Shown one piece after another: positions 11,477 through 56,511 of a stretch of DNA of 64,000 nucleotides. The notes under the pieces are model-generated. The model saw only the letters and a list, made by a program, of their open reading frames with translations. It searched no databases and had not been told where the DNA came from. Each line of letters begins with the position of its first letter. Position 1 is the stretch's first letter. The stretch is from Phoronis australis (lineage: Eukaryota; Animalia; Phoronida), in contig NMRA01000020.1 in assembly GCA_002633005.1 (NCBI GenBank), positions 608,673 through 672,672 of the forward strand, written 5' to 3'. The translations under genes and the position numbers were made by a program.

Positions 11477-11675
11477 ATGAGGCTGTTCAGATATCAGTAC
11501 TGTAAAGTGATCATAGCCACGTCCTTGGTGTGGTTCCTGCTAGATGTGGCCATACTTATGTACTTCACGGACTGTACGTCTCAGTCGACGACGGACTGCA
11601 AGAACAGTGGCCAGGTTGAGAAGAAGGACTCTCAAAAGAAAGAGGGAGGTTTCCTAGAAAAGCTATTACCCAAAG
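11477..11675 (+). CDS. GALNT1: GALNT coding exon 1 (cytoplasmic tail, type II TM anchor, start of stem)
   Basis: [33 protein letters not shown] closely resembles the GALNT1 N-terminus; donor AAG|gtatg, phase 1. Confidence 0.93.
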
Positions 11676-20600: not shown

Positions 20601-23600
20601 AATGCTTGTGTATTGGGAGACGCAATGTTTTTAAATCAATTTCAAGCAAACACATGTTTATTTTTTGTTGTTTGAAGAATTGTTGAATAACAGCAGGTGT
20701 GGTATTGAATGAAGTTTGCTCAAAGCTGTGATAAGTAACTAAATTTTATGTCACATAATATTGAGTTGAAATGTTGGCTTTTTGAACCTTTACTATCTGT
20801 GTCGTCATGGCATCAGTCAGTAGTTTTGTGGTGATGATCGAATGTTGTTAATAGAACTGTTATCCCTTGGATTATAGTTCCTTCCCTGGTTAATTGACAA
20901 TTGAAGTATTTATAGTGCTGTAACTGTTCACTCTTTTTAATGACTAACAGTTGACATTTTTGTGCCAGAAACCTGGAGTGGTACTTGCGTTGGCTGCACT
21001 GTATCTCACCCAAGTGTTAGTCTCGCGGCATGCATGTGTGGTTGTGCCATATATGTATGGTTGTGCCATGTATGTATGGTTGTGCCATGTATGTATGGTT
21101 GTGCCATGTATGTATGGTTGTGCCATACATGTGTGGTTGCGCCATGTATGTATGGTTGTGCCATGTATGTATGGTTGTGCCATACATGTGTGGTTGTGCC
21201 ATACATGTGTGGTTGTGCCATGTATGTATGGTTGTGCCATGTATGTATGGTTGTGCCATGTATGTATGGTTGTGCCGTACATGTGTGGTTGTGCCATGTA
21301 TATGCATCACAAAATGGACTATTGTTATCAGTGGTCAAAAAGCTCTTGTGGAGGGTAACAAATCTGAACCAGTGAACTCCACTGTCATGGTGGGCCTGGT
21401 GTCAAGTTAAGAGTCAAAACTGGCTGTACACACAAACTTTTAAGAAATGTTTCACTGCCATACTCAAACCAAAAGGAAAATTTTTAACGATAGTACTGTC
21501 CATGGCTTTTAATATTTTTATGCTCCCACTTATTCATGGGTGCATGTTTCTGTCATATACCTAAACATCTGGCGTCCACTACTGTGTCCCCTCAATCCCT
21601 TACCACGATCTTAGTGAGATTTTGTAGATGTGCTCCCATGGAGCTGATGACAGATGACGAAAAGTTTCGGACCTATCCGACTACAGCTGTGTCCCCTCAC
21701 GGCAATTTCATTTTTTCCATTTCCTTCTTTATCTTGGACTTCCTTGACGGATTCTCATGAAATTTCGCAAAAGAGGTTTCTGCTAAAAAGACGTCGGATG
21801 GAGCTTATGTACTCTATGCCACCTAGTGGACAATTCGTTTTTGAGTCCATCTCAAACGATCATTATAAAAATCGCCGTATGTTTTCCCGATGAGAAGACG
21901 ACTAATGTTGGTTTTCGAACGAATCTGAGTACTGTGGTGACACTAGTGCATCTGTAGGATCTTTGTGAAATTTGGCAAGTGAATTCTAATGAACTTGACA
22001 ACAGGTACATACAGATCTGACTACCGTTGTGCTTCCTAGTGCCAGTTTTATTTTGACAATTGCTTCTGTATCTTTTGAGTTTCTCGACTAATTTGCATGC
22101 TATGGGACAATAGATTTTCCCATTTTCTGACCAAGTTCAATGTATTCTGCACCATCCATATGATATTGATAAGCACCCATAGAAGCATACCATTTGCTGT
22201 GCAGCCGTGAGTACATTTCAGTGCTTTGCGTTTCTGTTGTTTTGCTCTTCACCAAGTCACACCTTGCATTCATAAATTTGGTATTGTTTGGTCTGTGCCA
22301 CGAGAACATGTACTTTGTCTTTTACATCACACAGCCTCACTTCTCATATGTTCTTACAGCCCTTCAGCCAAGGCGCGTGCCCAACGGCCCTGGAGAGATG
22401 GGCAGGGCAGTGGTGATCCCGCCAGACAAGAAGGCGTATTCTCAAGAGCAATTTAAGATCAACCAGTTCAACCTTGTAGCCAGTGAGATGATGTCACTGA
22501 ACAGAAGCCTGCCGGACTACAGAATGGAGCAGTGAGTACAGCCGCTTAGACTATAACATGCACATAGTGTCTGATTACATGGCAGATTCTCTCATCTTCT
22601 GTCTAAAAAATTTCCGTATATGTTCATCAATCAGTCCGCAGGTGAAGTAGGTGCGTATGATGCGTAGTCAGTGTCACGCATACCGTATTCGCCGTAGTAA
22701 CCGCCCATGCCCCTATAAGCGCCCCCCACGCGTTTTCAGACTTTGCTGAAATAAGCGCCCAGTCCATGAACGTGTACATGCGAACAATGACGTACCTTCA
22801 GTCCTAAAACTCGGCTACAGTAACGTCTTCAATTTATCAACAAAAAAAATTTTCTACGGGTCTTCTAGACCACCAATGGCACTGCTACATTTGTATTTAG
22901 CCGTGACTATACACTTCAAAGTAACACAGCGCTTCAAAAAGAACGCAACAGCGTTGCTACTTTCGCGACGACTGTGTCCCACTATGGTCTGACCTTTCAG
23001 TAGACACATCGACTGTTTAAATAACTCGGTGTTGAATGCACGTGGCCAGAAAGCGCGCGCTACATATATGAACCTAGCTGTCATCAAAGACATTAGTCGG
23101 GAACTATCCATTCATGAAACGGGTAGCATAGCATCCGTAAGAAATGAATATTGGCCCTAATTTCCGACAATTTCTAATACTATAAAACATGTTTGCGTTA
23201 TTTTTTAAAGGGATTGTTTGATTAACCATAATTGATGTTTTTAAACCGAATATCCGATAAAATGACAACTGACAGTGAATGCTTGCACACCCTTACACCG
23301 AAAAATAACTGTCAGATAGTTACGTACGCATCCAGCTACACGGCGACTAATATGGGCGGCATAATATGGGCCTTACCGAAACAAATGTCGAACGTTTTTA
23401 GCACGAGACTGGCAAGTGCTGAATGAAACACGCTCTGGTTTAGGCTTACTGCTTGTGCAAATTTCTTTAGACGCAATGCACATCTAGCTCGTTAGATCGC
23501 GTGGCTCTGGCCAAAAGACGGTCTCTGCTTTGGCAAATGAACTCTGGTTACACGCACGCGCTCGCTTACTCGCAGACGAACTTCAAAACAAACGTCACGT

Positions 23601-26600
23601 GACAACAACATGTGTGTTCGTCCAGACATTTTTCTCGCCATGTTGCCGATCATACATGTAGATGGCACGATGTTGCGCAGATTTGTACTTAAAACTGCCG
23701 TAAATCCAGACTCCACGGGAACTTAAAAAAAGTCTTAGGGACGCTATTTAGAAAACTTAATGAGGATTTCAGGTAATTTGCTTGAGTCGAACCTATTTTT
23801 ATTGAAGCATTGAAGTCGCCATATCGAAGACGGCAATTTTGAGGCAGTCATTCGGCGAGTTTTCGCCCTGGGATTTCAGCACAATTTTCTGTAAAATGAT
23901 CGTAATTTAGCAGCAAAGTTTGATAACAATGCACCACAGTTTTGTTGGAAGTCTTTCATAGATTACAGATACGTCACAGAACGTAAATTTGATGAATCTT
24001 AGCTTCCGATTTCACCCGTTTCGGAGACCGGGTTTCAACCGCCTTGGGTTATAATAAGCGCCCCCCTGAACAAAACTTTTCTAAACGCCCTGGGCAGTTA
24101 TTACGGCGAATACGGTAAACGATGTGCAGCAGTGGCCGCATGGTATGCAGCAGTTGTTGCATGGTGTGCAAGACTTAAGTTAGTGCTGCATTGTTCACTG
24201 AGACTGACTTCCATCTTAATGGATAATTTTTGCCATGCCTGGACACTGTGCACAGTGTATGTGTTTAATTTTCACAGCTTTCTTTATGTGCACTTGCACA
24301 TAGTCTCAGTGTGGCTATTTTGGAGGCGTATAATTAGTCATGTGACATGTCAACTGATTATGTGAAACTAGGTCTGGTTCCGTAGATTAGGGTAGAGGGC
24401 AGCACAGTGTACCACGTATAAATTGAGTACACAACGTTTAGCAAAATCATGCGCGGCTAGCACTACGTAGTGAGACGGCTACATTCAAATGAACGCTATT
24501 TGTAGTTTGGGTTTGTGGTAATTGCACGATTCGTTTGTTAGAATGACAGACATGCACATTTATTTTGCTGCTCAAATTTGCTAGTAGCATGAGCCATTTC
24601 AGTCGCCATCTTGTCGTGTATTTACTATGGGCCGAGTTTGTTGCTGGTTTTTTCAAGAATTTTTGTTGGCATGTGAATGGAATTTGTTGAAAACTTTTTT
24701 GTGTTTATTTAGTCATGAGGAGAGAGTCAGCTGGAAATAGTTGCTTTGAAATTTCACCAATATAAGATGAGACTTTGTTCACTTTTTTGAAAACAACTTC
24801 ATTTTGTACTAAGTCTATGTCTTGAGACCTTTACTGGAATCCATATTCAGCATAATGTTAAAGTGTGCTTGGCTTTTTGGTGTTAAGAAAGGCTTACACT
24901 AATCTGAGAGGTATTTGAAGGTGCAATATATGAGGAGATATCGGACTTGAGGGGACTATTTAATTGTATGGATGGGAATATTTGGGCCTTGAGAATTTCT
25001 TGTGATGTTTAAGTGTTTTTCTAAGGGGAATGAAGTCGATACTTGGTCCCAAAAGTGAGGCCTTGAGGGCCCTGATATGTGCTGTCACCAGTATTTCTCT
25101 TAAAAGGGGAATAGTTGTTGGTAGATGTGTTATAAGTTTCAGACTCACATTTGGACTTCCATTTTCAGGTGTAAGTCCAAAGAGTATAACGTTGAAGAGC
25201 TTCCCACAACCAGTGTTGTCATTGTGTTCCATAATGAGGCATGGACTACGCTACTTCGCACTGTTTGGAGCATTATCACCCGATCACCACGCCACCTGTT
25301 GAAGGAGATTATTCTCGTGGATGATGCTAGTGAACGAGGTAGGTGACTGATGGTGCTTCCACATTGGTGTAGATGACTGGAGTCCCTTAATTGGTGTAAA
25401 ACTCAGTCTATTCATTCAGAAGAATGTTTAACTTTTCTCATGTGGATTTTAGTATACCTTAAAGTAATTAAAGTTTTCAAAAGGGACACAAGTAAACAGA
25501 TGAGTCGGGTGGTTATAAGGGTCACGAAGGGTTGTCCAGGACCAGTTGTCATTTCTTAACCAAATTAAATGGTCCATACTAAAGATTAGCACTATTTTTT
25601 GTATGTAAAAAGGGTGATATGGAGACTGAACTGATTTGTGGCTGATGCTGGAGTCCTATGCATTTAAAGTCGAACAATAGGTCTGGAAATTGACTTGGAA
25701 TTTAGTAATTTGATGCAGTTACACAGTTTTGTGTATGTCTTTTTGATGGATTTGTCATGCCTTGGGAGATAAAGTGTAATGTTTTTGTACACAAATAAAG
25801 TGTAATATGATTGTGTAGTCGAAATTTGCTTCGTCACAACTGAACTCATTGTCACGAACAGCGCCAATTATAAGTGAACCATGACATTGTGCTAGCTCCA
25901 CCTATACGTGAACCATAACATGCTAGCACCATCTTTTGGTGAATCATAACATGCTATTTGCCATCAATAGGTGAACCATGATGTTGTGGTAACAGCATCA
26001 GCAGGTGAACCATAACATCATGTTATCGCCATGTCATATGTGAACCATGTTATGCTAGCGCCATCTATATTTGAACCATAAACTTATACAACCGCCACCT
26101 GTAGGTGAACCATACCATTATGTTAGCACCATCTTTTGGTGAACAACAACGTTATGCTGGCACTGTCTATAGGTGAACCATAATGTTATGCTAGCTCTAT
26201 TTACATGTGAACCCCAACATTATGCCAGCACCATGTATAGGTGAACCACAACATTATACTGGCACCATCTATAGCAGAACTCTTCAGGTATGTTTCATTT
26301 GTTTGTAGATTTCCTGGGCAAGAGACTAGAGCAGTACGTGGCCACTCTGCCCGTATCAGTCAAGGTGATAAGGATGGGCAAAAGGAGTGGATTAATCAGG
26401 GCCAGGTTGACAGGTAAGTGGTTTAATGACCTATGGTCAGGGGCTGACATGACCACAAAGTCATAAGAATAGACAGGCAGTCTATTGGTTTTAGTTTATA
26501 GTTCTGAGCATTTGCTAATAAGTTCTGTTCTCACCGGAATAATGGCATTAACTGATAGCATAGTTCTAGGTTTGGAAAAGCTTAAATTCTTAACATATTA

Positions 26601-29600
26601 TAATGAATGGTAGACAGTAAATGTTTTAGATAGTTGGATACAGAATTGAGAACTTGATTCTGTGAGTATATGAAATCTTGTCAATATTTCTCAGACCCAT
26701 AATGGTACATGTTCAAGTAGCGTCTGTTGTTGCATAATGTGAAGTCTTTATGTGCATTTGCCGTACGTTGTAAAGTCCGGATACACATTTGCCGTATTGT
26801 AAAATTATTTTGTACATTTGTTGTGTAGGTGCTGAGGCTACAAAGGGCAACGTGATCACATTCCTAGATGCCCACTGTGAATGCACAGAGGGCTGGTTAG
26901 AACCACTACTCTATGAAATCTACAAGGACAGGTAAATTATCTGTTGGCTGGTGAAATGTCTTCTCATCATTATGTTTAAATTTGTTGTTGTACCAACTGA
27001 TTAGAATGTGATCAAAGATCAGAAACTCAAATGTGTGAATCGATAATCATCAAATCAGTGCTCATTCTGTAATATGTTTTCAGGACAAATGTGGTTTGTC
27101 CAATCATCGATGTGATCAGCGATGAGACATTTGAATACATCGCAGGGTCAGACATGACGTGGGGAGGCTTCAACTGGAAGCTCAACTTCAGGTGGTACCC
27201 TGTTCCACAGCGGGAACTGACCCGCAGAAACAATGACCGCAGTCTGCCTCTCAGGTGTGTATACGTGCCTCTCAGGTGTGTTTATGTGTGTTTTAGTGTA
27301 TTTTGTGATGTCGTGTGCACTTTGGATTTGTTGTTTTCAAAAAAATGACAAAATTGTAGTGAAATTATTTTGTTTTGTCTAGCCAGTGCAAACATTCTGA
27401 AGAATTGGATTTGGGCTTGAATTTGTTTTTGCGTCATTAAGGACATATTTCAAACAGGTTCGGGGATGGGCCGCGCAAAAAGAACATTCTTTAGTTTACT
27501 CTCAACTGTTAAGCTACTGGAAGCTTTTTAATAACATTTTGGTCATGTCAGAAATTTACTCCCTGGGTATAATCCTCTGGCACTGCCTTCACCTCACTAC
27601 CAGATGGTAGTTCTCAGTGGCATGTCTTAAAATTTTTATTGGCCAACGCAGAAATTATTTAACTGTATTATTCTGCTGTAACAGTGAAGAAGTCTGTGTT
27701 TGATGTTTCTGTTAGCATCATTTGTTTTTTGTTGTAGGTCACCAACCATGGCTGGTGGTCTTTTTGCCATAGACAGGAGTTACTTCTATGAGATCGGATC
27801 CTATGACCCAGGCATGGATATTTGGGGTGGCGAGAACTTAGAAATGTCCTTCAGGGTGCGTCATCTTTTGTAGTAAAGTTTTAGCCCCACGCATGTGTGG
27901 TTTTCTAGGCAGAAACATGCCACTTATCATAATGGAAGTAACTGTATTATGCTGCTGATATAGTTTTCATCCAAATGTTTCGTGCAAGGCAGAATTGGAC
28001 ACTTTATGTTAAGTAATTTGTTGAAATCGGTTTGCTACATGGAATTAAAGTTTGAACGTTCACGTGCCGGTTTCAAATCAACGTTCTGTTAGGCTCAAGC
28101 TCTAAATGCCTAAGGATTGTAGTCTTGGTGTCTTGGTGTTTTTCACTGCGTAATAATTTTTGCTGTCTTGGTTTGGCTTTATGCTGTTACTACAGACACT
28201 AAATGTGATTTTTACGAAATCTCGCATCTAAACTGACTGAAGTTTGGATAGAATGAAAAAATTTGGACTTTCATTTTTATGCGCCCACATATTATATGTG
28301 GACGCATTATGCCGTCATCTCTGTCCGTCCGTCCGGGCGGCGTCCGGCATCCGCTGCTCTATCTCCAAAACCCTTTGACATACGTTCATGAAATTTGTTC
28401 CATTCATGAATGGGACGGCATGTGCGAACTTTCGGACGGATGCGACTACCGGTGTGCCCCCTAGTGGAATTTGGTATGTAGGCACGTATTAGTGAGATGA
28501 TGCTATCCTGCCGTTTTCAGATGGATTCGACATAGTTTGCGTCACCTAGTGGCCATTTTTAGTGTTTTCGAGTCTGTTTTTGTGCGTCCACCCCTCTATC
28601 AACCAAACCGCTCAAAGGATGATTGTGAAAATTGGCATGTATATGCTTACTATGTAGAGGACGGTTGACGATGATTTTCCGACGATTTCGACTACTGTNN
28701 NNNNNNNNNNNNNNNNNNNNNNNNNNNNNNNNNNNNNNNNNNNNNNNNNNNNNNNNNNNNNNNNNNNNNNNNNNNNNNNNNNNNNNNNNNNNNNNNNNNN
28801 NNNNNNNNNNNNNNNNNNNNNNNNNNNNNNNNNNNNNNNNNNNNNNNNNNNNNNNNNNNNNNNNNNNNNNNNNNNNNNNNNNNNNNNNNNNNNNNNNNNN
28901 NNNNNNNNNNNNNNNNNNNNNNNNNNNNNNNNNNNNNNNNNNNNNNNNNNNNNNNNNNNNNNNNNNNNNNNNNNNNNNNNNNNNNNNNNNNNNNNNNNNN
29001 NNNNNNNNNNNNNNNNNNNNNNNNNNNNNNNNNNNNNNNNNNNNNNNNNNNNNNNNNNNNNNNNNNNNNNNNNNNNNNNNNNNNNNNNNNNNNNNNNNNN
29101 NNNNNNNNNNNNNNNNNNNNNNNNNNNNNNNNNNNNNNNNNNNNNNNNNNNNNNNNNNNNNNNNNNNNNNNNNNNNNNNNNNNNNNNNNNNNNNNNNNNN
29201 NNNNNNNNNNNNNNNNNNNNNNNNNNNNNNNNNNNNNNNNNNNNNNNNNNNNNNNNNNNNNNNNNNNNNNNNNNNNNNNNNNNNNNNNNNNNNNNNNNNN
29301 NNNNNNNNNNNNNNNNNNNNNNNNNNNNNNNNNNNNNNNNNNNNNNNNNNNNNNNNNNNNNNNNNNNNNNNNNNNNNNNNNNNNNNNNNNNNNNNNNNNN
29401 NNNNNNNNNNNNNNNNNNNNNNNNNNNNNNNNNNNNNNNNNNNNNNNNNNNNNNNNNNNNNNNNNNNNNNNNNNNNNNNNNNNNNNNNNNNNNNNNNNNN
29501 NNNNNNNNNNNNNNNNNNNNNNNNNNNNNNNNNNNNNNNNNNNNNNNNNNNNNNNNNNNNNNNNNNNNNNNNNNNNNNNNNNNNNNNNNNNNNNNNNNNN

Positions 29601-32600
29601 NNNNNNNNNNNNNNNNNNNNNNNNNNNNNNNNNNNNNNNNNNNNNNNNNNNNNNNNNNNNNGGTGCAATTGTGGGCGCATTTCAACGCTCTGCATTGCTC
29701 TTGTTACGTTTAAGTTTATTTATTCTTTCCTTTGATTTGGACGTCTATTGTTTCTCTCCTGTTGTTCTATTGTCTGTCATCTCTGGATGTCTCCAAACCA
29801 GATCTGGATGTGTGGTGGCCAGGTGCTTATTGTCACGTGCTCCCATGTAGGACACGTGTTCCGCAAGGCGACGCCGTACACTTTCCCCGGCGGCACAGGG
29901 CGCATCATCAACCACAACAATGCCAGGCTATCGGAAGTCTGGCTGGATCAGTGGAAACATTTCTATTACAAAATCAATCCAGGTTAGATAATGCGATAAA
30001 GCATCGCATGCGAATGGTCATGTTTTAGACTTGCCTGCATGGCTATACTTGACTTGTATCTTCAACCGCCTGACTGTTCTCTGACCTCAGGTAGTGCGGT
30101 GTTCACCTAAGACTTGGGGTTGAGGTTACAATGTTATTTGCCGTTGCATGGTAGTTGTGTCTCCGAGGGCAGTACCTATTGTGGTGTTCATTTCCAGGAG
30201 TTAAATGTAATCAAAATAAACAGTTCGTATTTCATATTCATTTGAAGTAAGACTTCACGTGAAGTATTTTGCAAAGCGTACAGTGTCATTTGGATTTCAT
30301 TACTTCCTCGATGCACCACACGTAATGTCCTCAGGAAACATAGTGCATTATTTTGCCTCATTGTGCGGCTGTTCTAAACACGCATTTCTCTCCATCATTC
30401 ATTCATTTCTGCACACAACAGGTGTGGATGTGCGGGGGCTCTGTCTTGATCGCCACGTGCTCCCGCGTCGGACACGTCTTCCGAAAGGTCAGCCCATACT
30501 CGTGGCCAGGTGGCGTTAGTCGCATCCTCAACCACAACACCCAACGCACGGCCGAGGTCTGGATGGACAAATACAAGAACTTCTATTACAAAATCAGCCC
30601 AGGTTCGACCTTTCACTCTTGACCTCTGCCTCTGAGGTCAGACCTTTGACTCAAAGTGTCCTCTCTGGTTAAAGTTGCTGTGTCATTTCAGTGGGCAACA
30701 CCACATTCACTTGCTGTTGCTTAATAAGAAAAACCTTCTTTTTAAACGTATCAAAATAACCTGTTAATAAAAAACTTCATGAGATTCGATTGTGAGTTGT
30801 TTCACTAGCCTCACCCAGTGTATATAATGACTGACTATCTCACTGATGCAGTGGGTCTGATCATGTCGATTAATACTGACTGCATGTATAACATCACCAT
30901 GACTGTAATTAATGGAAGTCATGCCATCTATTTCTTAAATGCCTGAGGAACCTTCTATTAATATGATGATCATAATGACCATTAGTTAAGAAATGTCCAC
31001 TGGATGACATGACAACTTCATGCTTGAATGTGTTTTGCTGTCGCCGTCTGCTTTCAGCTACTAACTTTCATCGTTTCTTCTAATGTTTGCGTTTGTTCTG
31101 TTTTCTAGGTCTGTGCGGCTTATTAACATTTATTAACCAATTGTTGTTGTGTCTGTCTATGAGTTGGCTGCTCACCAATTTGTCAGCATGCATCATATAG
31201 TTAGCTGATCACATGCTACTTGGCATGCTTGTGCTTCAGCTTGAGTTCAAGGGTTACTCGTGCAGCTGATCTCTGTGTGTTTGCATAATATGTGTGTGCA
31301 TGTGTGTGGTAGAATGTGTGTCTGGTTGTTGAAAATTGTTTCACTGTCTTAACACTGTCACTGAACAGCACCAGCCGTGCGCAGTAGAGGGGAATGAGAA
31401 CGCAGTGTTAGATTTCTTTTGGCTGTGTTTAATTGTTAGTCACCACAGTCATGTTCTGCCTTTATTTTGCATCGTTTTATCCAAAATCTTGTTAACTTTG
31501 AAATCATTCTTTACATAGTTTTCTTAATATGAAGTCTTAATATTAAGTGCCTTTCCTTTAAGAGCCAATCAACACCCGTCCATCAATCGATGACATTTCC
31601 ATGGAAACAAAGCCACCACTGTCTAGACTTTACATTGTTCATCTTTGCCTGTACCATTAATTGAGTTAAGATGGTTGCATTCTGTAACCAATCAAATTAA
31701 TTGCATTTTGTTTGGTGCATTGTCAGTTGACTTTCAAGGTTATTACTTGTTAACCCTTTGAAGCAAACGTTGCTGTAATCCAAATACAACAAACAGCATC
31801 ATGTCTATGAAAGCTTAATATGCTATTTTGCACCACTGGTACATAATGGATATCAGTGTCATGAGAGACAAGCTTCGTGCTTGCCTGTGTTAACCATCCA
31901 CTGTTTTTGTGCTAAAATCTTGTTTAGTTTTTCTCCTTTTGTTTTGACTTTTAATTTGCTTGCATTGATGGTTAGTAAACACTGGAGAACTAGACTAAGT
32001 ATCGATTATTTGTGGTCCTCAGTGAAATACTATGGTCACTTGGGATCTATTAGTGTTTTCACTGTTACGGCTGGTGGGGTTTTTGTTATCCAGTTGAGTT
32101 TCAGATTCGCACTGTTTGTTGTGTGTGTAATGTAGTTTGCGTTCACTTGTTTGGTGTTGTTTACTGGCTGTTCTGAGTATTTGTTTTTAGTCTGGACTGC
32201 TGTGGCTGTGATGGTAGTTAGATGTTAATCTTTTTGAATTGTGATTGTCGCTTAAATAACTGGTCTCAAAATTCTGCAGGCCAGGATACTAAGTGATTTC
32301 TAAAATTAAAAAGAAATGGAAGGTCACTAATGATTGATAGAATGCAGTACAGTTATGGGGGGGGGGTCTGCCCTGTCAAAATGCCCTGGGTTGTTGTTGA
32401 TAATCTCTGAATGATGTGTTTTGGGATTGACATATAACTATGGCTGAAGTCTAGTGTCGTGTTATATCATGGTACGGAAAGTTTAAGGTGCGTTTTGTGT
32501 GGTTAACAAATCAGGTGTTTGTTTTAGACAGTGACTTCGAGGATAGGTCCCTGTAACGCCTGCTAATGCTGAGTGATTGGTGTTTATAAACTCTCGTGGA

Positions 32601-35600
32601 GGCTATTTTATTTTTGTTTAAAACGAATCACCTACAGTGTAATAAGGGTGTTTTCACTTAGTCAAAATGTCACCAGTCCCACATAATCAGTCTCCATTGC
32701 TTCTTGAGAGTCTCTCATTGGCTGACCAGTGAGGTGTGTTTTCTGGAAAGCTCAATTTAAGTTAAATCGGACTTTCGGGTGCGTGTCCTAACTATTCTGT
32801 TTGTAATCACATAAGGCTGTGTTTCGATTCTGTTTCATATATTATTTTTCAAAACTGATATCAAGATTTTCAGGGTTTTCCCTCTCCTTTGTGGCACTAG
32901 GACATGTAAGTCGACCAAATTGGGATAGCAGAGGCACATTTCATGTCAGATCTTGCATTCAATTTTTAAAATGAGCCAAACATAATCTTATATAACCTCA
33001 CCCCAGATGTGTTCTTACATGGCCTTGCACCATACATGGTCTTACAATTCCACTGGGTTTGATGAGCTATCTTCCCTCAGATCACCGTTTTGTATTTTTT
33101 AAATCTAAAAGCTGAAATGACAATCCTAAGTACGTTGATGATTTCGCATTTTATAAAATTTCTCAAAATAACTTTTGCTGCATTACATTGAATGGTTTTG
33201 TGAAATATAATCCAGAACAGGGTCGCATTGATTTTAGTAGTCTGTTAGAAAGTTTCGACTATCCTAGCGCTTAGTATGATTTATCCCGTGTTATCGCCAG
33301 GCGTACGGCAGACAGATTATGGGGATGTGTCCGAGCGCAAAGCTCTGAGAGAAAAGCTCAAATGCAAGAGTTTCCATTGGTACTTGGAGAACATCTACCC
33401 CGAGTCACAGATGCCTCTGGATTACTACTCTTTGGGAACAGTGAGTGAAATTATCGTCTGCGATGAATTAGTCATGCTCTAGTCCTGAATTAAATGGTGT
33501 TCATGAAACTGCGCGTAAGTGGAGTTGACATTACTATCTACAGACTGTCTGCATTGAAGCTTGGATGCCTTTTTGAAGTTCTCTGAGGAATGTGTGTGTG
33601 TGTGCGTGCATGCGTGTGTTTGTGTGTGTGTGCGTGCATGCGTGTGTGAACCAGACATGAAGTCAGTTTTATGAAGAGTGACCAAAGTCTTTAGACAGAA
33701 CTTTGGTCTTATACTCCCTATTCACAATTGCTGAATAAGGATAATTATGAGAGCATCACGGTTTACAAATAATACATTCAGCAACTAGCAGTTTTCAATT
33801 GTGTAACTACATTCTTGGAGATTTTGCGTTTTTTTTGCGCAAATGACGTTTAATAGTTTTTCAGAAATAGTTCTGCGTAGCACAAAATCAAATTTCGGAC
33901 TTAAGTCTCATCTAATTCTTCATGAGACAGACCCCTGTTATAGTTTGGACTCTGTAGTTAAATTTGTATTACACGTTTCCATAACGTTTTTGCCTTGAGA
34001 ATGACCTGAGTTGTGTCTTTAACGCACATGTGAGATTCCTCTGATTGACCATAGGAAACCCATTTTCAATTGGCTCATGCTTTCATATAAACTGACAAAA
34101 TGTGCTTGTTCGTAAGGGGTTTGTTGATGTTATGTTCAGCAGCTGTGTTGACTCAAAATCACTTGTCATGTAGAACTATTTACAGTCCTCTGTTACACAG
34201 TGAGCATATGTTTGAAGCAGATGGATCTTGTGGGACCCTGATCACATGTAGAAAATTTAAAATTTGAAATCTTGCAACTTGTTGACAGTTCAGTATCACT
34301 GCATCATTGCTAGTCCATTGAGTATGTATTCAGCTGCTGATGTAGCATTTTAGCTTTGTTGGTGTATACCGTAACCCCTGTGTGATGACTTTCAGATAAA
34401 GAACAAACAAACTGGAAAGTGCCTTGACAGTATGGGTCGAAAGAGTGGGGAGAAACTGGGAATGGTCAACTGCCACGGAATGGGGGGGAACCAGGTATTG
34501 GGATTGTCAGTCGTGTCTGCAGACAAACTTGGAAATTATTATAATCAGTATTCAGACTGTCCGATTGTCAGGCTCACTTGGCAGATAGATTTTAGAGAAC
34601 AATTAAATTTCGAAAATTGCCAAATGTGAAATTTACATGGAATTTACTATGACAATATAGAATGGAAAGGATTTTGTATAAAGGTCCTGTGTGATTAACT
34701 TTGTTAAGTCTTCGCCTATTTAGTGCTTGCTGTGACTGACTAGTCTGATTTTAGTTTGATAAATTTCTCCACAAAAATGTAATGGTTTGAAATGCACAGC
34801 TCTCATTATACAGAACCCAGTGAAAGTTTGCTCGTTGCAAGGTTATCGGCCATTGAAATGATATTTTAACAATTGCCTTGTGTGAAATAGGCGACGAATT
34901 GCCATTAAAGTTTTTAGTGATTATTTGAAGATAAAGAAGGCAATAATGTTTAATCCCATGTCATCCCCTGTCTCATTTACTCTTGAATGTATTGAGACCA
35001 TAGTTTTGTGTGTTTTACTGTCTATTAACTTAAGTGTAAATAATGCATTTCAAGCCACGGCTAGTTGACTTGCTTGATCAGTGCTGAGAGCTGTGCTAGA
35101 ATTGCTGTCATGTTGAGTCGTTCATTGTTTTTTGTACGTTTTTCTCCTGCTGCCAGATTTTCTCGTACTCAAAGAAGAAGGCATTTCAGACAGATGACGT
35201 CTGCATTGATGTGTCGGCCGTCAACGGTCCCGTCAATCTGTTTCAGTGTCACGGGCTGGGGGGAAACCAGCATTGGGAATACAACCGGCAGGTTTGTCAT
35301 GACGCATCACCTTGCATGGTTGATGTCGACGTGTGAAGGATGTAGGGAATCATGGACAGTCTTGATGGCAGGAGGGCTGTTTCACACATTATCTGACTGT
35401 CCTTGTGTGATTTTGAAAATTGTCTTGGAGTTTTGCTTTCCCAGCATGACTTCTGAGATCTTAAAAATGGTCTGTTGTATGAACCATTGAATTTTGTTTA
35501 AAGTTGCCAAATCCTTACTTTTTTAACCAATTTTGATTTTACGAATTGTCACAATTTTTGTTCTGTAAACATGCCTGTTACCAACAGCTAATAAATATCC

Positions 35601-38600
35601 ATTGTATTAGTGCCACATGGACTATATTTCTCAGAATGCAAGGAACACAAACAGATACAGTATGAAACTGGGCCCCTGAACTGTTTATCATTGCACACAA
35701 TATGCAAATATTCTCCCAGGTGTTTGTGTTTGTGTGTAACGGTTTTGAGACTCCACCCTTCCCTCATCTCTCCTGTCCATGATTCGTCGCCATCGTTCAC
35801 GCCCGGCCCCGTCATCTGTATCACTAACACGGCTCGTCGTTTCACCTTCGTATTTTTGCTCTTCAGATTTTTTCTTATGTGGCCACCAAACAAATACAGG
35901 CCGACGACCTGTGCATAGGTGCACAGTACTACACCGCCATACTAATGTCTTGTCACACGGTGTCCGGCGGACAATGGCTTTATGATCGACAGGTAGTGTT
36001 GACGCATCTCCTGGGAAGGGTTTGGGTATCTGGTCTGGAAAACGTTTTAATGTCTGCCAGTTGCGCTGTTCACGCTTTTTCAATTTTTATGAATTTCGTG
36101 TTGAGTTTTGTTCGAAAGCTTTGAATTTTTTTCTCTGTTGAAGAACAATGATACAGTTATTGGGAGCATGTTAATAAAGCATTTTGTTATTATTTAATAA
36201 ACGATGGTCTACTGTGGCAGTCAAATAAGTAGATGTTTTAATTTTTTGATACTTTAAAAAGGAATGACTTTATCCTAATGATATTTATTGCATAATTCTC
36301 CGTAGCACCGGAAAATTCAGGGATTTCATTTATGGCGCTGCTTCTGTATTTCAAATGCATTGTGTGAGGGTTGTCAGTTTGTACTTACTAGGTGATATCA
36401 CAGATTACTTGTTGATGTGTACACAATGTGAAGGAAAACTTGCGCACACGAGAATTATAAGCAAACTCCACTACAACATGTCTTTGGGTGCAAGTGTAAC
36501 AAAATAGCCATCATAGAAGAAATAAACAGTGAAAGTGAGCCTCTAAAGGCATCAATATTTGATTAGCAATTTTTGGCGGAAGATTTTCGAGTCATGCCCC
36601 ATCCAGTCGTTTGGTGTCGGATCTCACCACCTGAAATGCAAATCATGAAACAAGTTATACACCCACAAGTTATCTATGTTGTCACTAGATGTTTATGAAC
36701 TGACAAGTGTCCCACAATGCATTTGGGTAACAACAGCACCGCCACAGGTGAGATTGCCTGAATTGAGTTGTTTGACCAGGTCTCAAATTGTTGTTTGCTT
36801 CTTATTTGTCAAATAGTCGGTGTGGAGTGCTTGGTGCCCTGCTTCTTTAGTTTCTTCTGAATCGTCAAAACATGATTCATGTTAGCCGAAATCCATTTTT
36901 TATCAAGTAATACGGTTGATGAAAGGTTTGTTCAGGTCATGTAGGACTGTGGCTGATCTAAATGAAACTTTTAGACACTTCCCTTATGCGCTACTCTCCT
37001 AAATGCTGTTAGGGATTGGTGTTGAAATTGTCCACCTTTGCATGAGGGCTTTCAAAAACAAGAATGTCTAATAAAATTTGATCATGCTATTAATACTTTC
37101 AAAGTATCATGTTTTTGCTAAAAACTTGGTCATGTGACCTAATGAATGACAGATTTGTAAAAAGTCAAAAATCAAATTCTACAGGCTTACTATGTTGGAA
37201 AGATAAACTTAGAATCTATAGGTTTGTAGATATTTGGCTAAGTATACTAAATATAAAAATAATAATTGCAGGTGGTCTGGTATACGTTGTACCAGACACC
37301 TCAGGTTGGCCCATTGCACTGATCACCTGGAACCATTTTTATGCTTTGTTAATATATAATAGTTAAAATGGAGCCGAGGAGTTAGAGACCTGACTCGAGG
37401 GTCTAGCAGTGTACCCCAGTGAGTCTTGCACCCACGACTTTCAGTTAAAGAAGTAGGCACTTATCCTATAAAGCCACTCTGCCTCTTGTCCTACAAAACC
37501 TTATATCAACCGCAAAATCTTATCACCAGGGGTGGATCCAGGATTTTTAGTTAGGGGGGGCATGGCAGAGTATTAGTCAGGATTTTGCCTGTCAGACATT
37601 CGCACCCCCCATCTGACAAATGTAAACTGGGAGAATTTTAGGGGGGCCATGGCCCCCCTCTAAATCCGCCACTGATCACATCAACCTGATCCTGTTCTTA
37701 ACTTGAGATTGTTGTTTTAGCTGGTGGAATAGATGATGGACCGTTTTGTAGTGTGGGGTACTTGAATGTTTTTGTGGCTAGGATTCCCGTTTCCCTGTCG
37801 CTCTCCTGTGTGTTGGGATGAGCTTGTCTATGTATGCTCAATCCACCTCTATAGAAAATTACGTGGTGGGAAGTTTCTTAGTAGTTTTTTTAGCTAATGC
37901 AATGTAGTTGAAGGCTGCAGTCATCCAGCACAGTTGACTCCTGCAGCTTTGCTTGTTAAAGTTTACTAATTGTTTATTGTGGTCAGTTGTTGGACAGGAG
38001 CTTGTTTGGGATGCTGAGTCCTGCTGTCAGACCAATTATAAAATGAGGGACTAAGTGTTGAAAGTTTTTAAATTTAATTTTGTACTTTTTGGTTCAATAA
38101 TTTGATTTTTTATTTTATTTGGTACATTTTATACTTTTCTAATTAATTGGAGTTTTTGTTGTAATTATTATGTTAATTTTCAGCTTGTTGTTATTCTGAT
38201 CATGATGCCATTTTCCAATCCACCGGTGACTTAAATCATGGACACATCTTGAAAATTAGCCTATTGTCTCTGCATGATTCCCTGTGCATGGAAAGAAATG
38301 TCCCATTCCTACAGATTAGTGACTATTGCTTGACCTTTTCTTGCCCATTTGGAACACGTAATACAGTAACTGTGAATGACCACTATTTCTAGACGTTTCT
38401 GTGTAGGGTTAGTTTACCAGTGAATAGATCCAGATTATTTAGCTTAAGGCTGCATTCCGTCTTGGTTTAGCTGTCGATGTTGAATTCTTAACCAAAGCAC
38501 TTTGTGGTTTTAAAACATTGCCGTGCTCATCTGAGTTATTGACCAATAAATCTCTGAAGCATTTTTTGAGGCACTGATGGTTTCGATGTTCTTGTTGGTA

Positions 38601-41599
38601 ATGGATGTAGAATCGTGTTTTGGCAAGAAGTATGAGACTGAATTTATGACAGTTAAATGTTCCACAGGGTGTAATGCAGCTTTAAAATAGGAAAGAGTTA
38701 CATCACCTGGAGGAAAGCCAATGAGTTTGGTGTTGGTTTTTGACTAGCATACAAATTCCTCGTTTTCTTTAAGACATTTTGCCACTGTTAATTACTGTTC
38801 GCCTCGCCCTAATAACTGTGTAGTATACTTAGTGAAGCGACATTAACGGCTTAGTGAAAAGTCCTCGTCTTGTTTCTGCATTTTCTGGCATTGACTAAAA
38901 CAAAATGGCCATCTCAGTGTTTAAAAATAGCGTTGCACTCCGGTTTCGTGTGTCAGTGCTGTACCCCAGTACAAAAACGTTAATTACCGATATTCTACCT
39001 CCATTTGCCCCTCTATGTACCGAATCGCTAAACGAATCGTGAAAATTGGGAAATGTGTTCTTACTGACTGTAGCAAGACTGACATTCATTGATTTTCAGA
39101 TGTTTCTGACTTCTGTGGTGCCCCCTACTGTCATTTTGTTATGCACCTGCGACTGTATCTCCTAAACCCCTTGTAGGATTTTTGTGAAATTTGACAAAAT
39201 GCATCTCTATGAACGTGACAACGTATGACCACTTCTCTCGAATGAATGTGACTACCACTGTGCCTCCTGGTGATAGTTTTATTTTTTTACAGTTGCCTTT
39301 ACAACTTCAAAGTTCATAGACAGATTTTCATGAAATTTAACAAACGCAATAGATTTCCATAACAAATATGACGGTGCCTTTCCATTTTCAGACGAGCTCT
39401 ATGTATTGTGCGCCATCCAGTGACCATTTTTTGTAATAAACACCTGGGTTGCATTTGTTTTGCAGTCGTGAATGCATTTCAACGCTTAAGATTGCTCTTC
39501 TGCTAGAAACAAAATTTTGAAAGGAACAGGTTACTGATAATAAGTGGAGGTGCAAATGTCATTGGAGAATTGAATTATTAGTTGAGATAACACCAACATT
39601 GACTTTCTTCTCGAAGTGCTGTTCCCTATGGTTACAAAAGACTTTGAGACTACCTGTGTCAGCATCTTGTCTATAATGTCTGGCCCCACTTTTGATCTGT
39701 GGACAAAATTTGCTAGATATTGGCTGATCAGTGAAGTAAGACCATAAAACGTGAATGGCTTTAAAGACTAATATAATCATATAATGAGTAATTTGATAAT
39801 TGTACAGTGTGCAAAAACTTTCTTAGTGGACATATTGCTCAGTGCAAAACTAAGAGAGAAAATAATTTATTTTTTCAAAGAAGCAACTGGATTTCCAGTA
39901 TCATTACTGAGAAATGCTATGATCGAAAAGGTCGAAAATTATCTAAAAAGTGGCGCATGTCAGCTGAGCAAGTGACAGAAAATTTTTTTGGCTAAATAGT
40001 TTTTCATAAGGTTTCCTAATTTCAACCACTAGATGTTGTTCAATTTAAAAAAAAAAATGTCGCTATACCTGCGTTCCACCCACGAAGCAAAATTGTGACT
40101 TGGATCAGTTGCCGCTATGAAAAGGGTGTTGATTAGATCCTTACTGGTATGACAAGCAATTTCTTAATTAGCAAAGAACTGACCAGATGATATTTGCTGA
40201 GACCATGCTCAGCACAATATGACACGTCGTGCCGAGCCAACCCATAGAGCCTGATGTCTAGCAGTCAAGAGACTGTCAAGTCTTTTGAAACGCTGGAATC
40301 ATTTGCAAATTGATTAGCAATGGGAACAATTTGGCTTTACAAGTTGGCTTGTCGCGGTGTGCTATTTTATGCTCCAACCTTTGTTTCATGGAAACCCATA
40401 AATATCACTTCTTATCTGAGTACGGAGTTGTGACAGAATGCATGTTTAAATCACAGGATCACTTATGGCAACATGCCTGCATTCCAGCCCAAAAAAAAAA
40501 CAGCTTGATTTAGACCATCAGAATGGAAAGACTTGATCGGTGTTTATTGCTCGAGACCAGCCTTGATAATTTCGCTTGGAGGGTGGAACACAGATTTACG
40601 GCTGCTTTAACTGCTAGCTGTTAAGTGAAGCTGATGCACTGTGCTTTTACCAAGAGTTTGTGAAAACATATACGACAAATGCATCGGGATGATTTCAGTT
40701 GTGCAGCTTTACCCATGGCAAAATAGTGTCGGTTTTTGACAGTCCACCAACCATGATTTTACTGACAGTGGTGAACATCTATTGACCATGTTCTCCCTGT
40801 TGTTAGAACTCATGTTTCTGATGTCTGACCCATATTCATCTTTTTGCAGACTCTTACAATAATGCACACTAACTCCAAGCAGTGTCTCGACACACCCAAA
40901 CCAAATGAACCTAATGTGCCATCTCTTGGTGAGTTTTAAAACTACTAGGTCACTGAATACTATGCCAGTGTCCATATCATGTATTGAATTTTTTACACTG
41001 CCAGGACTTAATAGTTGATGTGTTCTATGCTTATCATAAATGTCTTTTAAAACAAAAAATGCGGAGTCCCAGATGAACAAATTGGTAAATGATTGAAGGG
41101 TCATAAGTTGGTTGAACTGCTGTCATTGAGTTTAAAGTGAAGGTGTGTACAGCATATCCAAGGGTCACAGCTAGTTTATTGGAACACAGTGCATTTCATT
41201 GTCAAGTCTTGTTCCTATTTAATTCTGCACTTGTTTTAATAATTGAGGCACTGATTAAAAATGAGGCAAGTTTTCTTTAAATTTTTTTCGTTGTTTTTTG
41301 TGGTGGTGGGACATTTTTGAGATGTTGAATTGTTTCAAATGTTTTTCATTTTTGTTAAACTGCAGAGTCATTAGCCCCAAAAGTATTAAGTCTTATTTTA
41401 AGCTACAGTGACAGCTGTTATTGTCATGATGTTAAAATTGAAACACCCGGCTCACGTTTGTGTATGAAATTAAAGTATTCTCATCTTCTGTTGACTTTTA
41501 ACTGTTTTTCACTCATCCAAGACATTTTTTCCAGGACCCTGCAATGGAAGCCCATCACAGCAGTGGATCTTGTCCGACATGGACTGGAACAAGATGTAG
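11477..41599 (+). CDS. GALNT1: Polypeptide N-acetylgalactosaminyltransferase 1/13-like (GalNAc-T, GT27), whole spliced gene span; 13 exon positions, 2 of them duplicated
   Basis: Exons join in consistent phase with GT-AG boundaries: 199+172+170+105+103+171+118+181+140+99+135+79+65 = 1737 nt (578 aa + stop). N-terminal TM anchor, FHNEAW, DAH (DxH), WGGENLE, VGHVFRK and three ricin-type CLD/QxW repeats. Assignment to the GALNT1/13 subfamily is from recalled similarity. Confidence 0.95.
12391..12640 (+). repeat. Minisatellite, 25-bp unit x10
   Basis: caactcatgtcttgggcaatgcata in tandem. Confidence 0.95.
13160..15435. mobile_element. Helentron-associated (HINE/DINE-like) repeats, probably two adjacent copies
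   Basis: 5' tttatgcgcccac..ggacgcat subterminal IR; 3' gtgggcgcat..ttgcgttgctcttgt; same architecture as 28277-29705. Confidence 0.55.
15893..16018 (+). CDS. GALNT1: Candidate cassette exon in GALNT stem region (42 aa)
   Basis: Pyrimidine tract ending tctag|, 126-nt open frame in phase 1-1 ([42 protein letters not shown]), donor ATAG|gtact; GC-richer than the flanking intron. Confidence 0.6.
16718..16830 (+). repeat. Pyrimidine-rich minisatellite (~22-bp unit)
   Basis: ttcccatttcacagctccctcc repeated about 4 times. Confidence 0.85.
18143..18560. mobile_element. MITE (PIF/Harbinger-like termini)
   Basis: ggcctgttgcatgaaacgg ... ctgtttcatacaaccggg imperfect TIRs. Confidence 0.55.
21030..21303 (+). 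repeat. Minisatellite, 19-bp unit x~14 (source of the spurious six-frame ORFs here)
   Basis: catgtatgtatggttgtgc and catacatgtgtggttgtgc variants. Confidence 0.95.
21517..22240. mobile_element. HINE-like repeat copy
   Basis: tttatgctcccac..atgggtgcat start; internal ccacctagtgg/gactac units shared with 28277-29705 and 39100-39500. Confidence 0.5.
22360..22531 (+). CDS. GALNT1: GALNT exon (GPGEMG...NRSLPDYR)
   Basis: ttacag|CC...GAGCA|gtgagt; conserved GPGEMG and [14 protein letters not shown]. Confidence 0.95.
22683..24115. mobile_element. Tc1/mariner-pogo (Tigger-like) non-autonomous element
   Basis: TIRs CCGTATTCGCCGTAGTAACCGCCCA / TGGGCAGTTATTACGGCGAATACGG, TA target duplication, internal ataagcgccc motifs. 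Confidence 0.85.
25169..25338 (+). CDS. GALNT1: GALNT exon ([15 protein letters not shown]...VDDAS)
   Basis: tttcag|G...CGAG|gtagg; GT1 motif. Confidence 0.96.
25860..26275 (+). repeat. Degenerate minisatellite, ~34-bp unit x~12
   Basis: gtgaaccataacattatgctagcaccatctatag-like units ending ~35 nt before the 26309 exon. Confidence 0.85.
26309..26413 (+). CDS. GALNT1: GALNT exon ([10 protein letters not shown]...RSGLIRARL)
   Basis: ttgtag|AT...ACAG|gtaagt; GLIRARL motif. Confidence 0.95.
26829..26931 (+). CDS. GALNT1: GALNT exon with DxH metal-binding motif ([16 protein letters not shown])
   Basis: gtgtag|GT...GACAG|gtaaat. Confidence 0.96.
27084..27254 (+). CDS. GALNT1: GALNT exon ([10 protein letters not shown]...[12 protein letters not shown])
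   Basis: tttcag|G...CTCAG|gtgtgt; a duplicated alternative donor lies at 27275. Confidence 0.95.
27738..27855 (+). CDS. GALNT1: GALNT exon ([11 protein letters not shown]...[11 protein letters not shown]), Gal/GalNAc-T motif
   Basis: ttgtag|G...TTCAGG|gtgcgt, 118 nt. Confidence 0.96.
28277..29705. mobile_element. HINE/Helentron-like element spanning the N gap
   Basis: atgcgcccac (28279-28288) with short IR gtggacgcat, (gtcc)n microsatellite, and distal gtgggcgcat (29671-29680) followed by ttgctcttgtt. Confidence 0.7.
29802..29982 (+). CDS. GALNT1: GALNT catalytic exon, alternative copy A (canonical: [19 protein letters not shown])
   Basis: accag|ATC...CCAG|gttag, 181 nt, phase 0-1. Confidence 0.95.
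30422..30602 (+). CDS. GALNT1: GALNT catalytic exon, alternative copy B ([19 protein letters not shown])
   Basis: aacag|GTG...CCAG|gttcg, 181 nt, same phases as copy A, no stop or indel. Confidence 0.92.
33301..33440 (+). CDS. GALNT1: GALNT exon ([29 protein letters not shown]), catalytic-lectin linker
   Basis: cgccag|GC...GGAACA|gtgagt, 140 nt. Confidence 0.96.
33591..33648 (+). repeat. (TG)n-type microsatellite
   Basis: tgtgtgtgtg..tgcgtgcatgcgtgtgtg. Confidence 0.9.
34396..34494 (+). CDS. GALNT1: GALNT lectin alpha repeat exon (CLDSMGRK...CHGMGGNQ)
   Basis: tttcag|ATA...AACCAG|gtatt, 99 nt. Confidence 0.95.
35157..35291 (+). CDS. GALNT1: GALNT lectin beta repeat exon, alternative copy A (CIDVS...[10 protein letters not shown])
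   Basis: tgccag|ATT...CGGCAG|gtttgt, 135 nt, phase 0-0. Confidence 0.94.
35867..35992 (+). CDS. GALNT1: GALNT lectin beta repeat exon, alternative copy B ([42 protein letters not shown])
   Basis: Branch point cactaac 35822-35828, pyrimidine tract, cttcag|ATT...CGACAG|gtagt; 126 nt, phase 0-0; aligns with copy A (IFSY, DD.CI, CH, QW.Y.RQ). Confidence 0.85.
37365..37482 (-). mobile_element. Possible decayed tRNA-derived SINE
   Basis: Minus strand reads ggcagagtggc...aaagtcgtgggtgcaagactcac, resembling degenerate A/B boxes. Confidence 0.35.
37527..37674. mobile_element. Short MITE (CAGGGGTGGATCCAG ... CTAAATCCGCCACTG)
   Basis: Imperfect TIRs, G/C runs, 5-bp flanking duplication ATCAC. Confidence 0.75.
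40850..40928 (+). CDS. GALNT1: GALNT lectin gamma repeat exon ([16 protein letters not shown]...)
   Basis: ttttgcag|ACT...CTTG|gtgagt, phase 0-1, CLD motif. Confidence 0.9.
41535..41599 (+). CDS. GALNT1: GALNT terminal coding exon ([21 protein letters not shown])
   Basis: tttccag|GA CCC TGC ... CAG TGG ... TAG; final C-x-QQW motif. Confidence 0.9.
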
Positions 41600-44814: not shown

Positions 44815-46119
44815 AGTAAAAATTGTGCATTTCACTGCTTTCTTTGCCTATTTGTAGTAAAAACGACTTATTTTCTGTGGTATTTTTTTTTGAGCTCAAA
44901 CCTTTTAAACTTTAAGTGTTAGTCATAACATACACAAACAAACTAATAACCAAATTAATGTTCATGTCTAGCCTCTTTAAAAGTACTCACCGACGTTCCC
45001 TTTCTACTTAGTCCTCTGAGAGCACTAGACAGATAAAAATGTCCTCTCTCCGGAAGTGCTCGCCATTTGCTGCCGTCAGTGTTGTATTGTTAGCCGAAGC
45101 TGTTTGGACATTAAAAGTACTATCGCGCATCCGACCGTTAATTGTTTCTGAATGAGCCAGCATTTCGTATGGTGCAAGCAGTGCGTACATTTCCCATTCC
45201 GCAATTCTAGCGTCAGCCAATTCCTTTAAAATCTGAAGCGTTTTCTCGAGTCTGAGTGTTCTTGTTGGCGACGCACTCAGAATCCTGTCACGGTAATTAG
45301 TACTGTTAGATGGTTGCATGAGGATAACAACAGCTCAATTCGAATTTTGTTTTTTTTGGCCTTGTAAACGGGGCGAAATACAACTTTAAACACTGTGACT
45401 ACTAGAATCGACCAAAAATAGTCGAAGGTGCATTTTTACTGGAAAATGTGTCTGTTTGCTCCCTAACATCAATTTCTTAGAGATTGTTCTAAAACCCCAC
45501 GACCCATTCTACATAAGCTCGACTCCATCTGAACATAGAACAAGCGCTGACTTGCAGGACCAACGAGTTGGGCCGTGAGCTCGACCGGCTGGCATTTCCC
45601 TTTTTTGCTATTAAGAGAGTCGAATTGGAAAATTTGAAAGCCAAAAACAAAACAAAAAAAAACGCGACAAAATCAAATAATGACCTACAAACGTTACAAG
45701 TATGTTCCCGGCATTACATGTATGTAATCGTCTCCTCTGCTCTTCAGTGGATGTCAACTTAAAGCTTTTTTGGCGGGAGAGTGCGAGGAGCCGACGAATA
45801 TGTAATTTTTCAGTAAACACAGTTTGAAAAAACAAAAGGTTAACTAAAAAGTACGTCAACGTTATATGGAATATATTGTAAACGAATATACAACAGAAAG
45901 CAAATAATAAAAATGCAAAATTATGTCCATTCACGTTAACTTTCACCCTAAGTTTAGTAGAGCAGGGCCATTGGTAGCCGCTTACCGTGGAACTATTTCC
46001 ATGACGACGCTAGCACGCTCACAATTCGCTACTTCAGATCATGTTCTGACGCAACTTTATGTTTCAAATCACCAGACTATAGCAAGAGCAGATTCGCGTG
46101 TAGGTAAGTCTTATGGGTA

Positions 46120-56420: not shown

Positions 56421-56511
56421 GTAAACTTTAAGTTTACTGAAAGGTCATCGACTTGGATATAATATGCATGTTTTTGGTTTTCTTATCAATTTTGCTATTC
56501 TCGTTACATAG

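Follow-up and report, generated by a model that had tools for sequence, protein, structure and literature searches.

Intact tandem exons, likely mutually exclusive, encode the catalytic flexible loop of a lophotrochozoan GalNAc-T1/T13/pgant5-type gene

The window, by which we mean the whole stretch of 64,000 nucleotides that was analyzed, carries a 13-exon gene of the GalNAc-T1/T13/pgant5 type. The gene was modeled by tblastn with relatives together with splice-site inspection, and all of its introns are GT-AG (Table 1). The 578-residue model contains DAHCE, WGGEN, VGHVF, and the lectin repeats in one open reading frame, which identifies the product as a polypeptide GalNAc-transferase (GT27), and exon 1 encodes an N-terminal hydrophobic stretch. 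The product is predicted to transfer GalNAc from UDP-GalNAc to Ser/Thr. Membership in the T1/T13/pgant5 group is indicated by GalNAc-T1 being the best PDB match for the two alternative loop exons described below, here called A and B. Outside the loop exon, the window protein is 70-81% identical to proteins named T1, T13, or pgant5; by lineage, the identity is 76-81% to most of the annelid and mollusc orthologues tested, 68-70% to bryozoan proteins, and 70-72% to arthropod and echinoderm proteins. A FastTree analysis places the window protein among lophotrochozoans, with the phylum not resolved. Elsewhere on the forward strand, positions 56441-58942 hold an 834-codon stop-free frame that encodes a pair of GAF domains and one PDEase_I domain (E 3.1e-68), apparently an intronless cyclic-nucleotide phosphodiesterase and possibly a retrocopy, and two reverse-transcriptase fragments (RVT_1; 46108-46584, E 1.2e-06, and 59936-60526, E 1.6e-19) are likely retrotransposon remnants.

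Table 1. Features of the GalNAc-transferase gene, in window positions.
Feature	Position	Strand	Remarks
Whole GalNAc-T1/T13/pgant5-type gene	11477..41599	+	tblastn and splice sites
Exons 1-3	11477-11675, 22360-22531, 25169-25338	+	
Exons 4-6	26309-26413, 26829-26931, 27084-27254	+	
Constitutive exon upstream of A/B	27738..27855	+	phase 0 end
N run, 963 nt	28699..29661		no strand; unreadable; in intron upstream of A
Alternative exon A	29802..29982	+	GalNAc-T1-like 11-residue loop; 60 codons + 1 nt; AG/GT bounds
Intron between A and B, 439 nt	29983..30421	+	
Alternative exon B	30422..30602	+	derived 11-residue loop; 60 codons + 1 nt; AG/GT bounds
Constitutive exon downstream of A/B	33301..33440	+	linker into lectin domain
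Exon after linker exon, before beta pair	34396-34494	+	
Lectin beta-repeat exon copy 1, 135 nt	35157..35291	+	Asp (= T1 D484), His, Asn kept
Lectin beta-repeat exon copy 2, 126 nt	35867..35992	+	Gly at D484 position, no Asn
Last two exons	40850-40928, 41535-41599	+	after beta copy 1 or copy 2

Exons A and B are each 181 nt long and are flanked by CAG on the 5' side and GT on the 3' side (donor GTTAGA for A and GTTCGA for B). The two copies are identical at 40 of 60 residues and 122 of 180 bases, with no indel and no stop. Both match GalNAc-T1 structures (E 6.8e-29 for exon A and 1.6e-23 for exon B) and align to residues 327-386 of 8v9q_A. The preliminary description of this DNA had quoted a peptide for each copy and had stated that both keep the two Cys residues, the Mn-ligand His of VGHVF, and EVW; the peptides are present exactly as quoted in the translations of A and B, and translation and alignment confirm that all of these residues are retained in each. 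It had also reasoned that 181 is not a multiple of 3, such that inclusion of both exons or of neither would shift the frame, and the gene model bears this out. Either A alone or B alone gives the open 578-residue protein, while a frame with A joined to B ends at residue 438, within B, and one with neither copy ends at residue 361, within the following exon; these stops lie 539 and 408 nt, respectively, upstream of the last junction. The placing of the pair on the catalytic flexible loop holds as well: GalNAc-T2 Arg362-Ser373 corresponds to exon positions 21-32, and 5 of these 12 positions differ between the copies. The N run upstream ends 140 nt before A, and a further copy of the exon could hide there. 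We note that the donor GTTAGA after A (29983-29988, +) is unusual and that the same hexamer occurs in a metagenome locus, L040, at 8746-8751.

The preliminary description had further proposed that the two exons are mutually exclusive, which the frame logic, the conserved tandem, and single-exon spliced forms in relatives all support. One cluster of proteins at 90% identity contains two members with A (P0200 and P0310) and one with B (P0311), each carrying the exon once within the same flanks. These three differ from one another at 0 or 19 of the 60 exon positions and at 21-29 of about 520 positions elsewhere, and the differences outside the exon indicate that they come from related genomes and not from one animal. 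When a tree is built without the loop exon, A-carrying and B-carrying proteins are interleaved, which is the pattern expected of alternative exons and not of two paralogous genes. Taken together, these relatives suggest that A and B are likely spliced in a mutually exclusive manner in the window animal.

At the four alternative exons of the gene the donors are weak, matching 1-2 of 4 consensus positions, and two constitutive donors are weak too. Premature stops that lie well before the last junction make an mRNA a target of nonsense-mediated decay. Exclusion may combine a regulated choice between exons with weak donors and nonsense-mediated decay of the mRNAs that include both copies or skip both, in which case only single-exon mRNAs would remain. 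Steric exclusion of joint splicing was considered and rejected, the 439-nt intron being too long. Local alignments of three intron parts among the window, L038 (a second metagenome locus), and L040 yielded no conserved element that beat all 40 shuffles, and 3 of the 40 shuffles reached the score of the best alignment. Between 29662 and 33300, 14 inverted repeats (15-24 nt, 74-88%), taken without a shuffle control, suggested no docking/selector RNA pair.

The same tandem is present in other animals. Lingula gene model P0003 has A followed by B, and in both L038 and L040 an A-type copy lies upstream of B with the same 181-nt AG/GT bounds; the metagenome scan from which these loci come comprised the best 80 of 410 confirmed loci, 55 of those 80 being B-type. 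A protein search with B gave 155 proteins from 161 candidates, and among the 120 matches listed nearly all of the named ones are lophotrochozoan, with sources that include Owenia, Lamellibrachia, Helobdella, Lingula, many molluscs, and bryozoans. Window A is identical to the Capitella protein P0195 at 53 of 60 residues and to Lingula A at 52, and window B matches Owenia P0008 at 52 of 60. Within the window, the two copies have diverged by pN 0.217 and pS 0.701 (NG86; dN 0.26, dS ∼2.0, near saturation). Between animals, window A differs from other A copies, including those of L038 and L040, by dN 0.12 with dS of 2.2 or saturated, and window B differs from other B copies by dN 0.16 with dS of 1.0-1.4, as compared with dN of 0.24-0.31 when A is set against B. 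From these values, each exon resembles its counterpart in other animals more than it resembles its neighbor, and both are constrained. An old duplication under purifying selection had been suggested at the outset, with a phylogeny of the copies across species as a means of checking the pair; the conserved tandem and the low dN beside near-saturated dS agree with that suggestion, and in the phylogeny the B exons form a single clade (SH-aLRT 99-99.8). The sequences show the structure, frame, age, and constraint of A and B, which are intact, old tandem exons; the duplication predates the split of brachiopods, annelids, and molluscs. As a separate observation, window A (29820-29828, +) starts with GGQVLI, which is typical of B elsewhere, whereas other A copies have GGTLLI; an old gene conversion between the copies is a possible source.

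A switch at this exon is also found in Drosophila, where pgant5A and pgant5B differ within residues 398-457 (Kumar et al., bioRxiv 10.64898/2025.12.22.695686, in the available part of the preprint). Those residues are exon positions 1-60, so that the same 60 residues are swapped in an orthologous gene, and in both animals one copy is T1-like (5B, as A) and the other derived (5A, as B). On balance, we favor an origin of the lophotrochozoan pair independent of the fly pair. The competing explanation, to which we give a smaller though by no means negligible probability, is that B and arthropod 5A descend from one protostome duplication, which would make the window the orthologue of the pgant5A/5B switch. 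A common descent would account for Ser24, shared by B (70 of 70 segments) and 5A (12 of 12), and for Val32 (70 of 70 and 10 of 12, respectively), where T1-like exons have Thr at both positions, and the AU test under an LG+C20 mixture does not reject the grouping of B with 5A (delta lnL 1.17, p 0.434). Under LG+G4, the KH and SH tests of this grouping give p 0.081; however, the free LG+G4 tree joins A with B (SH-aLRT 86), and the AU test rejects B with 5A at p 0.043. All of these trees and tests use 60 columns and 29 rows, 16 rows of a first 45-row set having been dropped. Exon order also argues for two origins. The T1-like copy precedes the derived copy in the window, in Lingula P0003, and in L038 and L040, whereas the derived copy comes first in P0004, P0193, and P0194 (dragonfly, aphid, and millipede) and in the loci L059, L060, L061, and L072; a single origin would require gene conversion, or re-duplication followed by loss, to have altered the order. 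Glu at position 9 is found in at most 1 of 70 B segments, which in this respect are like A, whereas the arthropod copies have Glu or Lys (class A is defined by this position and class B is not). In addition, the first millipede copy has Thr at position 32, and in four chelicerate clusters and one crinoid cluster the 33 of 36 members that carry the segment are all T1-like. The derived copies also differ in that B has a Trp at the position of T1 F354, which is found in 0 of 12 segments of the 5A type.

The consequences for the enzyme can be gauged from GalNAc-T2, in which the flexible loop spans Arg362-Ser373, the peptide is contacted by His365, Ser373, Phe377, and Phe361, and His359 is a Mn ligand (PMC4432651, from the accessible text and, for His359, a figure legend). 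The His of VGHVF aligns with His359 in both A and B. In GalNAc-T1 numbering, the changes from A to B within the loop are A349V, T350S, T353S, F354W, and T358V, with I362L just after it. Among the contacts named in that portion of the paper, the copies differ at the positions of His365 (T in A, S in B), Ser373 (T/V), and Phe377 (I/L); the positions equivalent to T2 Phe361, Tyr367, and Tyr396 are the same in both, and the net charge of the loop is +3 in both. S24 and V32 are present in all 70 distinct Trp-type (B) segments and T24 and T32 in all 21 distinct A-type segments, the classes having been set by position 28 (Trp type) and position 9 (A type). The predicted fold of the B-type relative P0311 is that of GalNAc-T1 (mean pLDDT 77.7; 8v9q_A, E 2.2e-77, TMt 0.90), and low confidence is confined to the stem, the N-terminus, and loop residues 369-377. 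Our literature search turned up no statement about what T2 F369/T1 F354 does.

The loop exon would encode the His that binds Mn, the gating loop, and a helix-turn-helix adjoining the lectin domain. A would retain the ancestral T1-like loop, and B, with three T2 peptide-contact positions altered and a Trp added at T1 F354, would reshape the groove through size and hydrophobicity and not through a charge switch of the fly type. We infer that the acceptor preference or the kinetics of B differ from those of A, and different kinetics are plausible in light of the Drosophila precedent at the same exon. Overall, we consider it probable that A and B are intact tandem exons, likely mutually exclusive, which give rise to a pair of enzymes for which we predict different turnover or a different preference for acceptor peptides.

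It is unlikely, in our estimation, that both exons are spliced but yield near-equivalent enzymes, the pair being kept for expression or stability. Such equivalence draws on the fly data: D419 versus K419 and T457 versus P457 tune the activity of fly pgant5, and the two fly forms behave alike on neutral T-rich peptides (bioRxiv 10.64898/2025.12.22.695686, available part). Unlike in the fly, both A and B have K at position 419 (exon position 22) and P at position 457 (exon position 60), so these determinants do not differ between the window copies, and the loop charge is equal as well. The acidic residue at 419, to be expected in the derived copy if it came from the same duplication as 5A, is absent from B, with Lys also in 68 of 70 B-type segments. 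What tells against equivalence is that the signatures at positions 24 and 32 are held across phyla (70/70 in B and 21/21 in A) and that, on the partial account of GalNAc-T2 used above, the differences include three peptide-contact positions.

A has been retained unevenly. Thirteen B-type genomic loci span both flanking exons, and of these 1 is intronless, 11 have B only, and 1 has A and B; the sampling is redundant, with 10 distinct exon sequences among 12, and some loci may be paralogues. Ten more loci that include the upstream flanking exon only show no A before B. Across ten mollusc clusters, 61 of the 69 listed members carry the segment, and in 61 of 61 it is B; no A isoform was found among these 69 listed members (61 with the segment; for the Mytilus cluster, 15 of 27 members are listed). 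Clusters at 90% identity do join alternative forms, as in a bee cluster that holds both 5A and 5B, and the clusters of Owenia, Lamellibrachia, Capitella, and Lingula are singletons. These counts suggest that A has likely been lost in molluscs and other lineages, and the absence of A from most related loci implies that the A/B switch is dispensable in many lineages. The figures of 11 of 12 spanning loci and 61 of 61 mollusc members with B only could be extended to the window animal itself, with one copy, most likely B, used meaningfully and the other minor or vestigial, on the way to a loss of the mollusc type. We regard this as quite improbable: an unused exon would decay, whereas window A has intact splice sites and remains at 53 of 60 residues with Capitella A and 52 of 60 with Lingula A at dN 0.12 and saturated dS. 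An assembly artefact, a haplotype duplication, or a pseudo-exon, brought to mind by the start of A 140 nt after a 963-nt gap, can be dismissed almost with certainty, as the sequence between A and B is gap-free, the copies share 122 of 180 bases with mostly silent changes, and the same tandem in three other sequences (Lingula P0003, L038, and L040) refutes it.

The gene has a second pair of duplicated exons, in the lectin beta repeat, both with lengths that are multiples of 3. The Asp (T1 D484), His, and Asn that are kept in copy 1 form the GalNAc-binding motif of the beta repeat (PMC10901373, in the text available), and copy 2, with its Gly and missing Asn, is predicted to be unable to bind GalNAc. 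RefSeq isoforms swap the same exon in oysters, mussels, scallops, clams, limpets, abalones, and Biomphalaria. L040 also has two copies (14687-14821 and 15329-15463), both with Asp, His, and Asn, unlike copy 2 of the window. In the Mytilus and Biomphalaria RefSeq isoforms P0140, P0143, and P0168, both beta-repeat exons are skipped in frame. Together, the loop pair and the beta pair would give four isoforms from one gene.

The choice of sites by GalNAc-T isoenzymes is only partly understood, and exon swaps are clean experiments, here of 20 residues on a fixed scaffold. The fly pair is a charge switch; in A and B the charge is fixed while size and hydrophobicity change at contact positions, and the pair would therefore test a second rule. 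The sampled T1 orthologues of oyster, mussel, snail, and bryozoan carry the derived loop, which is conserved across phyla and may bear on mucus and shell-matrix glycoproteins. We offer tentatively, and short of an even bet, a broader reading with an independent lophotrochozoan duplication, convergence on Ser and Val at two of the peptide-contact positions, a Trp unique among the sampled loops, a 2 × 2 set in which GalNAc binding by the lectin beta repeat is on or off, and complete replacement of the ancestral loop by the Trp loop in molluscs. Were it true, the T1 orthologues of molluscs would lack the specificity of T1.

Among known enzymes, GalNAc-T1/T13 (1xhb, 8v9q) matches both exons best, in structure as well as in sequence, and its 11-residue loop is identical to that of A. 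Splice choice in a GalNAc-transferase is also seen in Drosophila PGANT9A/9B (PDB 6e4q, 6e4r), which have a lectin-domain splice switch. The choice between PGANT9A and 9B tunes substrate preference, and the swap lies in the lectin alpha repeat. This case resembles the lectin-beta pair of the window but differs in being another gene and in having its swap in neither the catalytic loop nor the beta repeat. A further case is formed by gly-5 (exons 9a/9b/9c) and gly-6 (8a/8b) of C. elegans, which have mutually exclusive homologous exons, those of gly-5 being 102-111 nt long and multiples of 3, with a 34-nt intron that gives partial steric exclusion (PMC4165533, in the part available). As in the window, mutually exclusive exons occur here in an orthologous or paralogous GalNAc-T gene, but the gly-5 exons of 102-111 nt are not the 181-nt loop exon. 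Tandem-exon events in GALNT13, Pgant5, and gly-5 have been catalogued, with the GALNT13 and Pgant5 events given as “different region, convergent” (PMC9741552 and its Table S5, both in part); if the lophotrochozoan pair is independent, it would add a same-region convergent case to a catalogue that lists these three separately. A literature search that lacked most subscription journals found no paper on the lophotrochozoan loop-exon pair.

The exon switch at this loop is already known from fly pgant5, with both kinetics and genetics, as far as the accessible part of the preprint extends (bioRxiv 10.64898/2025.12.22.695686). There, pgant5A and 5B differ ∼2.7-fold in kcat/KM on Sgs1-MD, pgant5A is dominant in salivary glands and alone rescues the knockdown, and GalNAc-T1 is described as having no such isoforms. 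The beetle Dendroctonus adds a variation: in model P0192, the stretch of residues 381-580 includes the same loop exon three or more times, once with a differing 11-residue loop, and judging from this model the arthropod loop-exon cluster can expand. Function is demonstrated for the fly pair and predicted for the window pair. What differs here, as read from the exons, are the substitutions of B itself and an exon order reversed relative to the mandibulate arthropod sequences that were compared. The window pair likely works like the fly pgant5 switch, with substitutions of its own.
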